From positions 96,001 to 160,000 of the forward strand of contig CBDDIJ010000005.1 of assembly GCA_965228855.1 (NCBI GenBank): 64,000 bases of DNA. Reading direction: 5' to 3'. Under the pieces are notes generated by a model, which did not search any database, was not told where the DNA came from, and worked only from the letters and a program-made list of their open reading frames with translations. This DNA is from Candidatus Obscuribacterales bacterium. GTDB taxonomy: Bacteria > Cyanobacteriota > Vampirovibrionia > Obscuribacterales > Obscuribacteraceae. The position numbers and the translations under genes were made by a program. Positions 3,966 through 10,496 of this stretch are shown piece after piece (the stretch's first letter is position 1; every line of letters starts with the position of its first letter).

Positions 3966-6900
3966 TCAATGAAATTTTGAAACATCAACAAGATCTCGCT
4001 TCTTCCTGTTACCGCGACCAAGTTTTAACGACATGGTATCAAACCACAAATAGAGATCCGGCAAGAGCAATAGCGTTAAAATGCTTGAGCTGATTAACCC
4101 GCCGATGACGACTGTGGCAAGTGGACGTTGCACCTCGGCGCCGGCCGATGAAGAAAACGCCATGGGGACGAAACCGAGACTAGCAACCAGAGCGGTCATC
4201 AGCACAGGTCGCAGTCTGGTCATTGCGCCTTCACGAACGGCAAGTTCTGTTTCCATCTTCGGCTTTAGCTTATTGATGTAGCTGACGAGGACGACACCGT
4301 TCAAAACAGCCACCCCCGAAAGAGCAATGAAGCCGATACCTGCGGAGATGGAAAACGGCATGCCGCGAGCGGCGAGAGCAAAAATTCCACCAACGATTGC
4401 AAATGGAATTCCGGTAAAAATCAGAAGAGCCTGACTGAACGATCCGAACGTCATGAATAGCAATACGAAGATCGAAACCAGGGCAATCGGCACCACCAGC
4501 AGTAGCATATTCGTGGCCCTGCGCAAATTCTCGAATTGCCCTCCCCAGGTTACATAATATCCCGATGGCAGCTTGATATTCTTGTCTATTTTGCCCTGCG
4601 CTTCCTGCACGAATGATCCCAGATCTCGGCCGCGGACGTTGAGTTCAACAACTATTCGCCGACGGCGATCCTCGCGAGAGATTTGAGCGGGACCATCTTG
4701 TACCTTTATGGAAGCAATTTCTGACAGAGGAATGCGTGCACCATTCGGCGCGGAGATGAGCAAGTTTTTCATCTGATTGAGATCATTGCCGGTTTCCTCG
4801 TTCAACCTGACCGTGAGGTCGAAGCGCTTCTCTCCCTCGTAAACTACGCCCGCATTTTTGCCTGCAACGATCGATTGCACTACGTTATTCACGTCTTCGA
4901 CATTTATACCGTAACGAGCAATAGCAGCCCGATTCGGTGTCACTATGAGTTGAGGCAGTCCGGAAACTTGCTCCACCTTAACATCGGCGGCACCCTTCAC
5001 TTTGCTCACGACTTTACTTATCTGCTCGGCCGTTTTCCTTAGCTCATCCATGTCATCGCCGAATACTTTAATTGCGACATCAGAACGAACGCCTGCGATC
5101 AACTCTGAGGTGCGAAGTTCAACTGGCTGCGAAAAGCTGAATACAGCCTGCGGAACACCAGATTCCAATTTCGCCTTCATACGAGAAATTAAGTCGTCTC
5201 TGTCGAAACTGTTGGGCAATTCGGATCGCGGTTTCAATCCGACGTAAATGTCAGCTGTTTCAACACCCATCGGATCGGTCGCGACTTCTGCCCTGCCGAT
5301 CTTTGAAACCACACGTGTAACTTCCGGAAAGGACTTGAGAATTTTTTCGGCGGCAGTTCCATTCGCGATTGATTGTGTCAGTGAAATACTGGGCAGTTGT
5401 TGCATTTGAACGGCAAGAGCGCCCTCATCGAGGCGAGGAATAAACTCAATACCCAGAAGAGGGAACGTCAGGAGGCTCATGAGCAAAACAGAAAAGGCGA
5501 CAGTAAATGTTTGAGCGCGAAATTTCATAACCACGCTGAGTGCTCGCGAGTAAAACTCGCGAAGAACGTGAACGACAACACTGTCCTCCTTCGAAACCGG
5601 CCCGGTCATAACGAAAGTGAGCATCGCCGGAACAAACGTCAAACTCAAAACCAGCGACCCGAGGAGTGCGAACACGATAGTAAGCGCCATCGGTTTGAAC
5701 ATCTTTCCTTCAACGCCGAAGAGACTCAAAATCGGCAAATATACAATCGCGATAATCGACACCGCGAAGACAACCGGTCTTCCAACCTCGATACACGCTT
5801 TTGTAATGATTTTACGGCGCTCCTCGAAGGGAACATCCGGATGAGCCTGGCTCAATCGCCGAACAGCATTTTCGACCACGACGACAGCGCCGTCTACAAT
5901 CAGACCGAAGTCAATCGCTCCTAAACTCATTAAGTTGCCGGAGACTTTGAACGCAGACATGCAAATAGCCGCAAACAGCATAGACAGCGGAATTACAGCG
6001 GCGACAAGCAGCGAGCCACGCCAGTTACCCAGCACCAAAAGCAATACCACGAGTACCAGCAAGGCACCCTCAATGAGATTAGTCTCAATCGTCTTTACTG
6101 TGCGATCGACCAGCTCAGACCGGTCGTAAAAAGGCACCAACTCAAGGTCTGACGGCAGAGACTTTTGAACTTGCGAGACTCTTTTCTTCACCCTCTCGAC
6201 TACGGCGCGCGAGTTTTCACCTTTCAGCATCATCACGATGCCGGCGACTATCTCTCCATTGCCGTCGGCAAGAACAGCCCCCTGACGGACTTCCGCTCCT
6301 TCAACGACATCGCCGACGTCACGTACGAATACGGGAACCCCTTCCTTCCCTGCCTTCACAACGATATTCTCGATCTGTGAAGCTGATTGAGTCAGTCCAA
6401 TTCCGCGCAAAACATATTGCTCGCCACCATGTTCGATGTAAGCACCACCAACGTTCTCGTTGTTGCTAACTACAGCATCGAGCACATCACGAAGAGTCAA
6501 TCCGTAAGCGAGCAAGCGCTGTGGGTCCAGGCGAATCTGATACTGCTTTTTCTGACCGCCGTAGCTGTTTACTTCTGCGACTCCAGGAACGCCCATGAGT
6601 TGCCGGCGAACGTTCCAATCCTGATCCGTCCGCAAATCGAGCGTATTCCGAGACAAGCCCTTCTTGCTGCGTATCTGATATTGATAAATCTCGCCGAGAC
6701 CGGTAGATATTGGACCCATCTCGGGTTTGCCGATGCTTTCAGGAATTTGTTCGCGCACCTTTGTCAGTCGCTCCAGCACCAGTTGTCTCGCGAAATAAGT
6801 ATCGACATTCTCATTGAAGACAACCGTGACGACGGACAAACCGAATTTCGAAACTGAGCGAACATCCGTCACACCGGGCAAACCACTAATTGCGATCTCA

Positions 6901-7106
6901 ACTGGAAAGGTTACCTGGCGCTCTATCTCCAGAGGCGCAAGGGCGGGCGCTGACGTAATCACTTGCACCTGGACGTTAGTTATGTCCGGAACAGCATCAA
7001 TCGGCAGATTTTTCAGGGATAACAATCCTGCCACCGCCATCAGTGCGACCAATAACAGTACGAGAAATCGTCGGCGGATAGAAAGTTTGATGATATTCTC
7101 GATCAT
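3966..7106 (-). CDS. czcA: CusA/CzcA-family heavy-metal efflux RND permease
   Basis: LPIDAVPDITNVQVQV, DFGLIVDGAVVVVEN, RLRPVLMTALVASLGF, GAEVQRPLATVVIGG; 1046 aa. Confidence 0.92.
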   Translation of the reverse strand: MIENIIKLSIRRRFLVLLLVALMAVAGLLSLKNLPIDAVPDITNVQVQVITSAPALAPLEIERQVTFPVEIAISGLPGVTDVRSVSKFGLSVVTVVFNENVDTYFARQLVLERLTKVREQIPESIGKPEMGPISTGLGEIYQYQIRSKKGLSRNTLDLRTDQDWNVRRQLMGVPGVAEVNSYGGQKKQYQIRLDPQRLLAYGLTLRDVLDAVVSNNENVGGAYIEHGGEQYVLRGIGLTQSASQIENIVVKAGKEGVPVFVRDVGDVVEGAEVRQGAVLADGNGEIVAGIVMMLKGENSRAVVERVKKRVSQVQKSLPSDLELVPFYDRSELVDRTVKTIETNLIEGALLVLVVLLLVLGNWRGSLLVAAVIPLSMLFAAICMSAFKVSGNLMSLGAIDFGLIVDGAVVVVENAVRRLSQAHPDVPFEERRKIITKACIEVGRPVVFAVSIIAIVYLPILSLFGVEGKMFKPMALTIVFALLGSLVLSLTFVPAMLTFVMTGPVSKEDSVVVHVLREFYSRALSVVMKFRAQTFTVAFSVLLMSLLTFPLLGIEFIPRLDEGALAVQMQQLPSISLTQSIANGTAAEKILKSFPEVTRVVSKIGRAEVATDPMGVETADIYVGLKPRSELPNSFDRDDLISRMKAKLESGVPQAVFSFSQPVELRTSELIAGVRSDVAIKVFGDDMDELRKTAEQISKVVSKVKGAADVKVEQVSGLPQLIVTPNRAAIARYGINVEDVNNVVQSIVAGKNAGVVYEGEKRFDLTVRLNEETGNDLNQMKNLLISAPNGARIPLSEIASIKVQDGPAQISREDRRRRIVVELNVRGRDLGSFVQEAQGKIDKNIKLPSGYYVTWGGQFENLRRATNMLLLVVPIALVSIFVLLFMTFGSFSQALLIFTGIPFAIVGGIFALAARGMPFSISAGIGFIALSGVAVLNGVVLVSYINKLKPKMETELAVREGAMTRLRPVLMTALVASLGFVPMAFSSSAGAEVQRPLATVVIGGLISSSILTLLLLPDLYLWFDTMSLKLGRGNRKKRDLVDVSKFH

Positions 7107-8497
7107 CAGTTTTCTCCCAATTGATTTTTCAATAGTTTTGATTTCAGCAAAAATGCTCCTTTGGTGGCGATCCGTTCGCCGCTACTCAAGCCACTTTTGA
7201 TCGCTACGAGGGTTCCATATTGTTTTCCGGCCACAACATCGCGTGGTTCAAAATCGCTCTTGCTCTTCTCGACGAAAACAACCGAGCGATCGCCAACTGT
7301 TTGAATAGATTCCGAGGGGACGAAAGTCCCGGAGACTGTTCCTGCGGGGCTAAAAGCAACCTCGACGAACGAACCAACTTTGACTTTATTATCATCGTTG
7401 TCGATCTCGACACGCACTCTGCCGGTGCGCGTGTCCTCGTTTAATCGTGGGTCAATGTAGTTGACCTTGCCTTCTAAAGTCAGCCCGTCAAAACTGATTC
7501 GGGCAGGCATCCCCAACGTGATGCTGCTTATTTTACCTTCGGGAACACTGGCAATTACCCATAATCGTTTTGTATTCGCGATGGTCAGAAGCGGTTTATT
7601 TGCTTCGAAACCGGCTCCGGGGTTAGCTAATCTCTCGATGACAGTGCCGCTTATAGGCGCATGCAACTCAATTGCGGAGATGTCGTGGTGTCTGCCATTC
7701 GATTCATTAGGAAGAGGCGCATCCAGAGCGCGCAGTTCGTCCTCAATGTGTTCCACTTCGGTTTGCGCTGTACTCAGCGCTGCGCGTGCCTCAGCGACCT
7801 CGCGGTTCAGCGAGATGTCCTTTTGGAAGTTGAAGTCCGCCTTTGCACGCTCGTATTCAGCTTCAGCTGCAACCAGATCCTTGCGCGCGCTCAGTCCCTC
7901 ATTGACCAGTTGGCTGATACGAGTCAGCGAAGCCTCGGTTTCCTCGAGCGTCGCTTTCGACTTCAGCAGAGCGACCTTGTTGGCCGATTGGGTCACGCGC
8001 TCCATGTTCTGCCTTGCCAATTTTGCACGCGTGTTGGCTTCGTGAAGTTTACCGTGCAACTCCGCAACTTGCGGACTGTCGATTGTCACCAGCAAGTCAC
8101 CTTTGCGCACCTGGTCACCAAGCGCAACAGCAATTCGACCAACGCGACCGGAAACAAGTGGTGTTATCTGCTGCAGTTGCTCTTGATTCGGCTCAACCAC
8201 GCCAGGTATCACGATATCAGCTGCTGGCGCAGTAGCCATCGCGGGAAGCGCTTTCACACCCGAAGCGATGCGCGTCTGAGCATCAAGCGAAATTAGACTT
8301 GAAGCCACCGCTTCTGGCAGAGAAACCGTTTCCGACGCTCCCGGCTCCGGTTCTTTCTGGCTCTGCAGATTCTGCCATAAGAACAAGGTGGCCAAGGCGC
8401 AGAGCAAGACGACACCAGCGGTGATTGCCCAACTTCTCGAAGTCTGGGTTCCATCGACGGAGCCACGATAGTTTTGAACTTGATTTGGAGCCAGCAC
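7106..8497 (-). CDS. RND periplasmic adaptor (CzcB/CusB-like)
   Basis: N-terminal TM anchor, lipoyl half-motifs (ITPLVSGRV, LHAPISGTV), coiled hairpin; AGGAG RBS before GTG; stop overlaps czcA start. Confidence 0.9.
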   Translation of the reverse strand: MLAPNQVQNYRGSVDGTQTSRSWAITAGVVLLCALATLFLWQNLQSQKEPEPGASETVSLPEAVASSLISLDAQTRIASGVKALPAMATAPAADIVIPGVVEPNQEQLQQITPLVSGRVGRIAVALGDQVRKGDLLVTIDSPQVAELHGKLHEANTRAKLARQNMERVTQSANKVALLKSKATLEETEASLTRISQLVNEGLSARKDLVAAEAEYERAKADFNFQKDISLNREVAEARAALSTAQTEVEHIEDELRALDAPLPNESNGRHHDISAIELHAPISGTVIERLANPGAGFEANKPLLTIANTKRLWVIASVPEGKISSITLGMPARISFDGLTLEGKVNYIDPRLNEDTRTGRVRVEIDNDDNKVKVGSFVEVAFSPAGTVSGTFVPSESIQTVGDRSVVFVEKSKSDFEPRDVVAGKQYGTLVAIKSGLSSGERIATKGAFLLKSKLLKNQLGEN

Positions 8498-8526
8498 AAC
8501 AGCTCTCCTTTCTGATTAGAGACGAC

Positions 8527-8557
8527 AAAAAAAATCGCAAGCGAATGACGCTCGCGA
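8527..8557 (-). terminator. Intrinsic terminator (candidate attenuator) between leader ORF and RND operon
   Basis: Minus strand TCGCGAGCG-TCATT-CGCTTGCGA (9-bp stem, one G-U) followed by T8. Confidence 0.8.
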
Positions 8558-8571
8558 ATAGATTCGCGTTT

Positions 8572-8976
8572 CTAGGTCAAAAGGAGTTGGTGTGAGGCAA
8601 CTAGAGTGGAAACTTTTAATGGAGGAGGAGGCGCGCGGGTGCCCTTCACCGCTCCCACATAGTCGGGAATGCGAGCGTAGCCGGCTTCTGGTTGGTAATG
8701 AACTGCAACCACGTCGCAATCGAAAAGGTAAACCGCAGGTGATACCACACTGGAATTTTGGGCGGAACAGCATGTGCTCGAATGCCCGCAGTCCGCGCAA
8801 GTGTCGCCCGAATCGCGAGGAGATAGGTCGATTGCTTGAGACTGGTAACCATTTCCAGTTTGAACATTCTGTTTATAAACATGCGCGACAATCTTCGGAC
8901 ACACGCATGCCGACCCGTTTGTCGCGAGCCACGACAAAACGAACATCAACATTACGACTATGGTTTTGGTTTTCAT
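8572..8976 (-). CDS. Secreted Cys/His-rich leader protein with RAPP motif (DUF2946/CruR-like architecture)
   Basis: Signal-peptide-like MKTKTIVVMLMFVLSWLATNGSA, CVC, CADCGHSSTCC, C-terminal TRAPPPP. Confidence 0.7.
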   Translation of the reverse strand: MKTKTIVVMLMFVLSWLATNGSACVCPKIVAHVYKQNVQTGNGYQSQAIDLSPRDSGDTCADCGHSSTCCSAQNSSVVSPAVYLFDCDVVAVHYQPEAGYARIPDYVGAVKGTRAPPPPLKVSTLVASHQLLLT

Positions 8977-9536
8977 TTCCGGGAAGATTGGCTCTACATC
9001 TTGATTCATAGCAGATAACTCACAAGCTCGCAACTTCTTTCCGGTAAAAGTTGTGAGCCAGCCGAAACGAAATACCTCATGGATCCCCCTGATGGTAAAA
9101 GGTAATCACCAGTCATAGTCGCAAGGCATCCTTGCGTATTTACGCAAACGCATCGGCGCACTTACACATTCAGTCGCGATTAAGCGTAAGGCACAATGAT
9201 TGCATCGGGACTAACCAACCGGTACCAACCTCCTAAAACCACACAACTGCTCACCGCGTCTCTAAAAACTAACCGCCTTTAGAGACGCGGAAATCAGAAG
9301 CCCAATAGAGAACCTAGAGGCTTCGTTCTACGAACCACTACGATTCCCGGAAATCATACGAATTCTGGAATCATTGGAATCCCGGAAACAATCGGAACCC
9401 CTTAAGAATTAACGAGCAACCTCGCTAATCTTAGTTTCTATATATCGAACGACTTTCTATTCTCCACCCACTCACCATGTTCGATACCAGCATCGACGGA
9501 AGGATCAGACTGCAGCAGAGATAAGAGTGACTCGAC

Positions 9537-10496
9537 TCAATTGAGGAGTATTGAGCACTTGATTGCGTCGAGCACTCTCATCTGCTTCAGAGCGTCCTCA
9601 ACATCGAATTCAAGACTGGTATCATTTAAAGCCGCGTTCGAAAAATGATCAAACAGATTGAGATAGTGATTTGCCGCCGGCAACACTATCTCTTCTTCAT
9701 TCAGGAAGATCGAAGCTGTTTCATGGGGCTGCCAGGCCCGCGGGAAATAGATGCGGCCTTTCTCTCCCACAACCTCCAGATCTGTTCGATAAGGGAGATG
9801 ATAACCGGCATCAAAAAGAGCCCGTCCGGATGAAAATTCCATGATGCCACTAATATTGGTATCAACGTCCAGCTCTGCGTGAATGTCTCCACGCGCAAAA
9901 ACATTAGTGGGCTCCTCCGCAAAATAGTATCGCGCCGCACTGACCGGATAGCATCCGACGTCGAGCAAACAGCCGCCTCCAAGCTCTTTGTCCAGCCGAA
10001 TGCCTGTTTTGGCAGTCAGCAGGTAGGTGAATGAAGAACGCACCAGTCTAACTTTTCCGATTGCATCCTGGGCAATTAACTCTTTCGCTTTGCGATGCTG
10101 TGGATGAAACGGCCACATCATCGCCTCCATGACTTTCAGACCGGTACGAACAACCTCTGCCTTAACTCTGAGTAAATCGGTAACGTTAGTCGCAAAAGGT
10201 TTTTCAACTAAAACGTGCTTGCCTTTTTCCATCGCTTTGATCGCCCATTGGCAATGCATTGAATTCGGCAAGGGAATATGAACAGCCTCGATGTCAGGGT
10301 CGTCGAGCATGTGATCGTAAGAGTCATAAATTTCAGGCAGTGAAAACTGCTCGGCAAATTTTTCAGACTTCTCGCGCGTTCGGCTTGCAACTCCGAGAAG
10401 TTCCACAACAGGGGAAAGCATCATCGCCGGAATACTGCGCCGTCGCGCAAATCCTGAGCCGCCGAGCACTCCCCATTTCAACCGCCGCATAATCAA
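9537..10496 (-). CDS. Gfo/Idh/MocA family oxidoreductase
   Basis: WGVLGGSGFA Rossmann start, HVLVEKP, GGGCLLDVGCY. Confidence 0.92.
   Translation of the reverse strand: MIMRRLKWGVLGGSGFARRRSIPAMMLSPVVELLGVASRTREKSEKFAEQFSLPEIYDSYDHMLDDPDIEAVHIPLPNSMHCQWAIKAMEKGKHVLVEKPFATNVTDLLRVKAEVVRTGLKVMEAMMWPFHPQHRKAKELIAQDAIGKVRLVRSSFTYLLTAKTGIRLDKELGGGCLLDVGCYPVSAARYYFAEEPTNVFARGDIHAELDVDTNISGIMEFSSGRALFDAGYHLPYRTDLEVVGEKGRIYFPRAWQPHETASIFLNEEEIVLPAANHYLNLFDHFSNAALNDTSLEFDVEDALKQMRVLDAIKCSILLN

Follow-up and report, generated by a model that had tools for sequence, protein, structure and literature searches.

The window analysed here is a stretch of 64,000 nucleotides (nt) from Candidatus Obscuribacterales bacterium (assembly GCA_965228855.1, contig CBDDIJ010000005.1, positions 96,001–160,000). 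On its minus strand, a heavy-metal efflux operon of the CzcBA type is headed by a small open reading frame (ORF) for a cysteine-rich peptide with a signal-like amino-terminus and the motif RAPP near its end. This is a real, conserved regulatory leader, and the modelled geometry of its RNA points to a switch that is off while a ribosome is stalled on the leader and on after its release. The reading we favour, at about even odds (probability around 0.5), is that of a metal-sensing arrest leader, in which a stall at RAPP would keep the pump off and metal-relieved release would turn it on. Central to this reading is a long RNA stem (8598–8563 with 8529–8490), in which the last codons of the leader are paired with the Shine-Dalgarno (SD) sequence and start codon of the first pump gene, the adaptor; the stem had been missed in an earlier, sequence-only reading of the same DNA. 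The features concerned are the following.

8976–8572, minus strand: leader ORF, 134 amino acids (ORF list and translation).
Residues 1–23 (approximately) of the leader, minus strand: signal-peptide-like amino-terminus, made up of MKTK, a hydrophobic stretch and GSA (judged by eye).
8907–8899, minus strand: CxC motif (CVC; C24 and C26), directly past the predicted cleavage site, invariant in 8 of 8 leaders (alignment A1).
8799–8767, minus strand: CADCGHSSTCC (CxxCGHxxxCC; C60–C70), candidate metal or disulfide sensor (alignment A1).
8637–8620, minus strand: RAPPPP, a motif of the translation, of which RAPP (8637–8626) is the candidate arrest site.
8598–8579, minus strand: anti-start-codon (8598–8588) and anti-SD (8586–8579) strands in the tail codons (ASHQLLL), from predicted pairing.
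8574–8572, minus strand: leader stop codon (ORF list).
8574–8563, minus strand: 5' side of the lower stem, comprising the stop codon and the bases after it, pairing with 8529–8517; kept in L101 despite loss of hairpin A.
8568–8553, minus strand: hairpin A, −6.0 kcal/mol here and in G007; not conserved.
8557–8527, minus strand: intrinsic-terminator-like 9-bp hairpin (8557–8535) with U8 (8534–8527), 14 nt past the stop codon, at the apex of the long stem (from folding).
8511–8495, minus strand: adaptor SD AAGGAG (8510–8505) and GTG start (8497–8495), sequestered in the predicted long stem.

Fifteen codons follow RAPPPP, and 17 follow RAPP, before the stop codon. The leader is the first gene and is separated by 74 nt from the adaptor on the same strand. 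The sequence-only reading had listed the 134-residue ORF, the cysteine cluster, RAPPPP, hairpin A and the terminator with its U8, and all of these lie where it had placed them.

Folding of the segment 8485–8601 gives −44.9 kcal/mol (z −6.0, with none of 200 shuffles as good). With the bases under a ribosome at RAPP masked, the start helix and the CUCC:GGAG core have pair probabilities of 0.9–1.0. Opening the region from SD to start is calculated to cost 15.6 kcal/mol in the free RNA, 17.7 kcal/mol when a ribosome masks RAPP and 8.4 kcal/mol when it masks the stop codon, a RAPP-minus-stop difference of 9.3 kcal/mol. The bases of the leader that are paired in the stem are located 37–52 nt downstream of the RAPP P-site. 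Because they lie beyond the footprint of a ribosome, which covers about 10 nt past its A site (PMC4824070), a ribosome at RAPP would not open the ribosome-binding site (RBS).

The same calculation was made for a test set of 27 leader loci that carry a [RK][AGS]P[PL] motif and have a recognisable start downstream, 25 of them ahead of an adaptor and two ahead of other efflux components; these loci are kin, so that counts over them overstate their independence. The set excludes L050, where the contig ends past the stop, L052–L055, where no start with an SD was found, and the near-duplicates L048 and L066; paralogues without the motif or with a long spacer were handled apart. The RAPP-minus-stop difference exceeds 5 kcal/mol in 18 of the 27 and 2 kcal/mol in 21, against 3 and 32, respectively, of 220 control gene pairs of the same genome (220 of 235 ordinary pairs evaluated), for which the maximum is 6.8 kcal/mol. 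In 24 of 27 loci, pairing of the leader with the RBS begins 20–45 nt past the P-site codon (median 36; 37 in the window). Outside the test set, the same folding is present in L101, L088/L103 and L102 (differences of 16.4, 14.2 and 11.4 kcal/mol); in L101 the post-stop and tail bases differ from those of the window, and the same stem is formed and is stronger (−50.9 kcal/mol, z −7.1).

The tail codons show what appears, from codon usage, to be constraint at the RNA level. The leucine at position −3 is encoded by CUY (CUU or CUC) in 22 of 24 loci, for an expected fraction of 0.42, and leucines at other tail positions use CUY in 6 of 19 (position −7) and 3 of 20 cases (position −2). The anti-start helix is paired in 76% of cells, compared with 15–45% in slid controls. 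When the duplex of tail and RBS is compared with synonymous recodings, z is negative in 20 of 27 loci (mean −0.94), and in full context 2 of 15 synonymous recodings reach the value of the window. The proline codons (CCUCCUCC) were also considered as the switch, through pairing with the SD, and were rejected: this pairing is formed only in folds that stop at the start codon and is lost with downstream context, and masking these codons leaves the RBS shut.

At E ≤ 0.01, a profile built from eight leaders detects homologues in 33 of the 104 genomes of the family, a few of them weak, and has 59 matches among 1.8 billion cluster representatives. The 18 named genome records are Obscuribacterales, Melainabacteria or cyanobacterium-labelled metagenome-assembled genomes. 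Among the best 14 adaptor loci from 61 genomes, the leader is directly upstream in 11; in two (L056 and L060) a leader homologue is located one gene further up, before TolC, and at L012 there is no leader within 1.4 kb upstream. The leader belongs to a family conserved in Obscuribacteraceae and located at the head of CzcBA-type operons. Homologues are also present in front of TolC, a Fur-family operon, an AbiEi-like gene and unknown exported proteins; most of the genes next to them are metal-related (CDF, P-type ATPase, Fur and Csp).

Invariant among aligned leaders are CxC, CxDCGHxxxCC, APP and the T and L of the tail; in the window leader, C60, D62, C63, G64, H65, C69 and C70 are invariant over the eight sequences of alignment A1, all of which have a signal-like amino-terminus as judged by eye. 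Among 60 proteins the motif is RAPP in 27, KAPP in 20, RGPP in two and KSPP in one, and it is lacking in ten; the KAPP form, nearly always NKAPP, is not named in the available text of two arrest-peptide surveys (PMC12992588 and PMC10987492). In all 50 motif-bearing proteins the motif is located 12–18 residues from the carboxy-terminus, at exactly 16 in 36 of them. From the CC pair to the arginine position the spacing is 46.4 ± 1.3 residues (n = 48; 43 in the window leader), with ranges of 43–49 from the last CC and 50–55 from CxxC. The linker between cysteine cluster and RAPP is poorly conserved in alignment A1, and its spacing is fixed. The leader has no family match in Pfam or NCBIfam, and neither it nor seven homologues match the Pfam profile DUF2946 at E ≤ 1. 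The class suggested in the sequence-only reading holds as far as a conserved leader of the RAPP type with a signal-like amino-terminus and a cysteine cluster is concerned; by Pfam, the leader is not a member of DUF2946. Matches in the ESM Atlas, unnamed small-protein clusters at 0.95 and DUF8199/DUF6769 at 0.94 with fewer than 170 shared features, were set aside as leads only.

The hairpin at the apex of the stem has a folding energy of −14.8 kcal/mol (z −4.3, none of 200 shuffles as good). If a hairpin of −6.5 kcal/mol or better with at least five U in the next eight bases is taken as terminator-like, one is present in 17 of the 27 leader loci, counting as misses L046, L049 and L032, where the hairpin picker settled on an incorrect or weak one, and in 3 of 120 co-directional control gene pairs of the same genome. 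It begins 8–24 nt past the leader stop and is weak or absent in L003 and L004, the two next-closest orthologues. The U-rich tail also pairs with A-rich bases past the stop codon, so that the signal may in part be a structural one. No Rho homologue exceeded the TIGR00767 cut-off in the 41 genomes searched (G000, 95% complete, and 40 relatives); the same search places Rho over the cut-off in 8 of 14 reference genomes. An intrinsic terminator after the leader, as read from the sequence before, is thus borne out as a recurrent predicted element in a lineage that gave no Rho match above the cut-off.

The leader, its motifs, their spacing and the complementarity of the tail codons to the RBS are present in the sequence. 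The long stem is predicted to shut the RBS; a ribosome at RAPP is predicted to be unable to open it, and one in the last codons or at the stop codon is predicted to do so. By analogy with CruR, ApdA and ApdP, arrest would take place at RAPP with the first proline in the P site; for CruR, arrest at RAPP has been shown in vitro (PMC12992588), and the arginine is critical for arrest of ApdA and ApdP (PMC10951233). The stalled ribosome would also block those that follow, leaving the adaptor untranslated. Judging from CruR, for which copper was proposed to relieve the stall and the cysteine-to-RAPP spacing is 45 residues (PMC9426467), and from the purpose of an efflux operon, metal bound to the Cys/His cluster about 45 residues upstream of RAPP would fold the exported chain and pull the ribosome off the stall. 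Released ribosomes would then cross the last 17 codons, melt the stem and expose the SD. More tentatively, the terminator may be a second lock of the same sign. With a ribosome parked 17 codons before the stop, RNA polymerase would travel alone and terminate; a ribosome reaching the stop codon, 14 nt before the hairpin, would partly suppress termination, provided that ribosomes trail the polymerase. Suppression of terminators by ribosomes near a stop codon is known from E. coli (PMC4824070).

Several points weigh against this reading. Arrest at RAPP, metal sensing and polarity are steps that we infer, and, besides the kinship of the 27 loci, the RAPP-minus-stop difference is below 2 kcal/mol in six of them (L007, L008, L009, L010, L045 and L047). 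RNAalifold on a MAFFT alignment (A2), in which the spacers are out of register, yields no consensus pairs. Covariation of the anti-start helix is not beyond that of shuffles (72 of 500), and the tail codons of the window itself form a duplex no better than synonymous recodings (z +0.1). KAPP takes the place of RAPP in 20 of 50 motifs, and the arginine is critical in ApdA and ApdP. Ten of the 60 relatives are motif-less yet keep the hydrophobic tail; because several of these still mask the next start, the stem may work without arrest. For CutF, metal is proposed to induce the stall (bioRxiv 10.1101/2022.11.11.516240 and 10.1101/2025.02.05.636593), and a metal-induced stall of this type on the window RNA would have the wrong sign for efflux. 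For the terminator step, transcription and translation are not universally coupled (PMC7858274).

The sequence-only reading had proposed the opposite polarity, a trp-like attenuator in which a stall at RAPP lets hairpin A trap the 5' arm of the terminator and permits read-through, while a ribosome at the stop codon allows the terminator to form. Hairpin A and the terminator do overlap by 5 nt, an intrinsic terminator is predicted between leader and first gene, and Rho was not found; the geometry works in the window genome, the only place where hairpin A lengthens to −10.1 kcal/mol and, in the early transcript, spans the entire 5' arm, freeing of the arm costing 8.3 kcal/mol versus 0.2 kcal/mol with a ribosome at the stop codon. 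The short hairpin A, which by itself is modestly beyond chance (z −2.1, 10 of 200 shuffles as good), is kept in G007. In the regions upstream of homologous czcBA genes, the cysteine motifs and a RAPP-type motif are conserved, and hairpin A is lost in L101: there the leader is 92% identical, the same 16 nt are unfolded (minimum free energy 0) and the terminator (−12.5 kcal/mol) and its U8 are intact. A trp-like antiterminator is unsupported because of this break. In the early transcript, freeing the 5' arm is costlier than for 95% of shuffles in just 3 of 17 terminator-bearing loci, the window (5 of 100), L041 and L042; G007 (47 of 100) is among the 14 that do no better than shuffles. A conserved, mutually exclusive antiterminator hairpin is thus not what these loci contain. 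Even with hairpin A intact, the top 4 bp of the terminator can close on it and push it aside across a low barrier (7.9 kcal/mol here, 3.9 kcal/mol in G007). Terminator probability is 0.97 for either position of the masked ribosome, RAPP or stop codon, the RBS-masking stem points the opposite way, and after read-through the RBS would still be shut while the ribosome sits at RAPP. We regard this attenuator as very improbable.

An unlikely alternative, which shares the stem, places the pause in the last codons or at the stop, with the conserved tail LHQxLLx-stop as a termination-arrest peptide: metal would prolong it as in CutF, and the parked ribosome would open the anti-SD pairing and hinder the terminator, so that stalling turns the pump on. 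A ribosome at the stop codon does open the same stem in the calculations, stop-dependent arrest peptides exist (PMC10987492), and the tail is kept in the ten RAPP-less relatives, whose cysteine-to-end spacing is 64–71 residues, compared with 66 in motif-bearing ones. A regression on spacing leaves it undecided whether RAPP or the stop codon is the anchor (Spearman −0.23, p 0.12). Against a tail pause, 50 of 60 relatives retain an [RK]APP-like motif whose distance from the last cysteine resembles that of CruR, the cysteine-to-motif spacing holds at 46–47 residues where the tail shrinks to 12–13, the tail codons carry the apparent RNA-level constraint, and non-polar carboxy-termini are proteolysis signals too (PMC9426467). 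It is likewise improbable that there is no metal switch at all, and that the leader is a small exported cysteine-rich protein, or a monitor of secretion or disulfides, with the stem serving plain translational coupling and the terminator fixing the ratio of leader to pump transcript. The motif is KAPP, KSPP, KAPL or absent in many relatives, the genes that follow are as varied as listed above, and periplasmic cysteine pairs may be oxidised, as in the model for CutF (bioRxiv 10.1101/2025.02.05.636593). However, proteomes avoid RAPP, which is over-represented in regulatory upstream ORFs (uORFs; PMC12992588), the neighbours are mostly metal genes, and a fixed spacing from cysteines to RAPP across a poorly conserved linker fits a ruler better than a folded protein.

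Among known leaders, CruR (Bp2923, DUF2946) of Bordetella pertussis (PMC9426467, PMC12992588) is alike in being the first uORF of a metal operon, in its export signal and in its cysteine motif about 45 residues before RAPP, and metal is proposed to relieve its stall. The window leader differs in lacking a DUF2946 match and in its cysteine motifs (CxC and CxxCGHxxxCC). CruR ends three residues past RAPP (PMC9426467), compared with 17 in the window leader; a motif within a few residues of the carboxy-terminus, as in DUF2946-type leaders, is seen in none of the 50 motif-bearing relatives, with their tails of 12–18 residues. CruR acts via Rho, whereas in the window, where Rho was not found (0 of 41 genomes over the cut-off), the output consists of the predicted RBS-masking stem and an intrinsic-terminator-like hairpin. 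Release of CruR turns an uptake operon off, whereas release here would turn efflux on.

CutF of Rhodobacter capsulatus (PMC8456105) is likewise an exported cysteine-rich leader with a proline-rich motif and a stem-loop hiding the next SD. At 134 residues the window leader is below 150 amino acids, it is a first gene, its same-strand neighbour is closer than 1000 nt (a 74-nt gap), and a stem hiding the downstream SD is predicted, all as in CutF-like genes. The pairing of such a leader with efflux is not new, because CutF-like genes upstream of CzcC/CzcB/CzcA-type RND genes are in print (bioRxiv 10.1101/2022.11.11.516240 = PMC9973294). In CutF, PPP is located two residues from the end (PMC8456105) and the stalled ribosome itself melts the stem, so that stalling, induced by copper, turns the next gene on; in the window, the masking bases lie within the coding sequence, 37–52 nt from the candidate stall site. 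The last PP occupies residues 118–119 of 134, outside the last 15 residues in which the survey of CutF-like genes required PP (PMC9973294), and this filter would miss the members with tails of 16–17 residues, most of the leader family.

SecM, ApdA, ApdP and uDF_RQH (PMC10951233, PMC10987492) share an arrest motif RAPP or RAGP, an export signal and an SD-sequestering stem-loop, but they monitor secretion, are without a cysteine cluster and induce the downstream gene on stalling. A small exported uORF with conserved RAPP or RGPP near its carboxy-terminus, the mark of this type, is found in the window and in 29 of 60 relatives, with KAPP or KSPP in 21. The pyrBI-type and tR2 terminators, studied in E. 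coli, resemble the proposed second lock in that a ribosome at a stop codon near the hairpin lowers termination without an antiterminator hairpin; a distance of 14–24 nt from stop to stem is in the range of partial effects (PMC4824070). Of the translation-acting arrest peptides, SecM, uDF_RQH and CutF induce the next gene on stalling, and CruR needs Rho. A stall that keeps the pump off, the likely polarity here, would be the reverse of known translation switches of the arrest-peptide kind. A literature search, with most subscription papers and all supplementary tables outside its scope, returned no RAPP leader with a translation-repressing stall or an intrinsic terminator.

It is possible, though we put it forward tentatively, that these leaders form a polarity-inverted class of RAPP switch: a spacer of 12–18 codons would carry anti-SD and anti-start strands in tail codons beyond the stalled ribosome, and the apex terminator would be a same-sign lock in Rho-less Vampirovibrionia. 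If so, the distance from RAPP to the stop codon would predict the regulatory sign across RAPP leaders, and in KAPP a natural arrest motif would have gone unrecognised. A geometry in which stalling represses would explain how the same sensing chemistry could close uptake in one organism and switch on efflux in another, and how such regulation could operate in a Rho-less lineage. The family also places RAPP leaders in Cyanobacteriota, from which a survey describes them as largely absent (PMC12992588).

Two genes of the efflux operon follow the leader.

8497–7106, minus strand: RND periplasmic adaptor (CzcB/CusB-like), 463 amino acids (PF16576 at E 8e-41; TIGR01730 above its cut-off, TIGR00999 below).
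7106–3966, minus strand: heavy-metal RND transporter of the CusA/CzcA family, 1046 amino acids (TIGR00914, 1282 bits for a cut-off of 701).

The best PDB match of the transporter is ZneA (4k0e), with 732 bits versus 655 for CusA, and its transmembrane motif is the same as that of ZneA. The three copper-site methionine positions of CusA align to Q, T and E in the transporter; motifs of this kind serve to assign the metal class. Because the pump is closer in sequence to ZneA than to CusA, a divalent metal (Zn, Cd, Co or Ni) appears more likely as cargo than Cu(I). The operon (3966–8497 of the window) contains no gene for an outer-membrane channel. In operons of relatives, TolC is located ahead of the adaptor, or a 440-residue exported gene behind the pump. 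A consensus scan of 8000–10000 returned no sigma70-like promoter on the minus strand, which leaves an independent promoter of the adaptor possible.

The same genome contains a second, unrelated RAPP leader (G000:C3; L031:1308–1700), with RAPPP and a 12-residue tail ending in YILNCAFLS. The last codons of this leader (L031:1308–2237, G000:C3 at about 302,800–303,740) pair with the SD of an exported gene resembling copper-storage proteins (E 7e-12 to RkCsp3), in the same long-stem layout, with a RAPP-minus-stop difference of 7.3 kcal/mol. The gene behind it would again be one wanted at high metal.

A RAPP-less paralogue of the window leader with the same cysteine motifs and the tail KWPC..YLAKQSLLI is located at L068:2612–4289 (G000:C2, about 1,747,600–1,749,300), and also at L032:6216–7898 and L072:8866–10618. 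It heads a gene for an unknown 236-residue protein and a Fur-family regulator, and is divergent from the RAPP leader in G007, G001 and G006. In L052–L055 and in L079:2581–3759, what lies 180 nt downstream of a RAPP leader with the long stem is an AbiEi-like gene and not a pump; the leader is possibly an orphaned one. Distant RAPP leaders with tails of 19–20 residues (L076 and L077) precede small exported cysteine-containing proteins of no known family.

Three RNA runs from as many studies, and one further run guessed to be RNA, gave contigs that match 160–271 nt of the 5' half of the leader (8681–8986) at 95–99% identity; the runs were found using the 64-kb window itself, and their contigs reveal neither transcript ends nor levels. 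As whole contigs, none of them reaches RAPP, the stem or the pump, and they were not used as evidence of expression. RNA-run contigs of relatives stop near 8951–8986. Upstream of the leader is a 560-nt spacer (8977–9536), in which short, imperfect repeats resembling GATTCC/GGAATC are present near 9400–9340.

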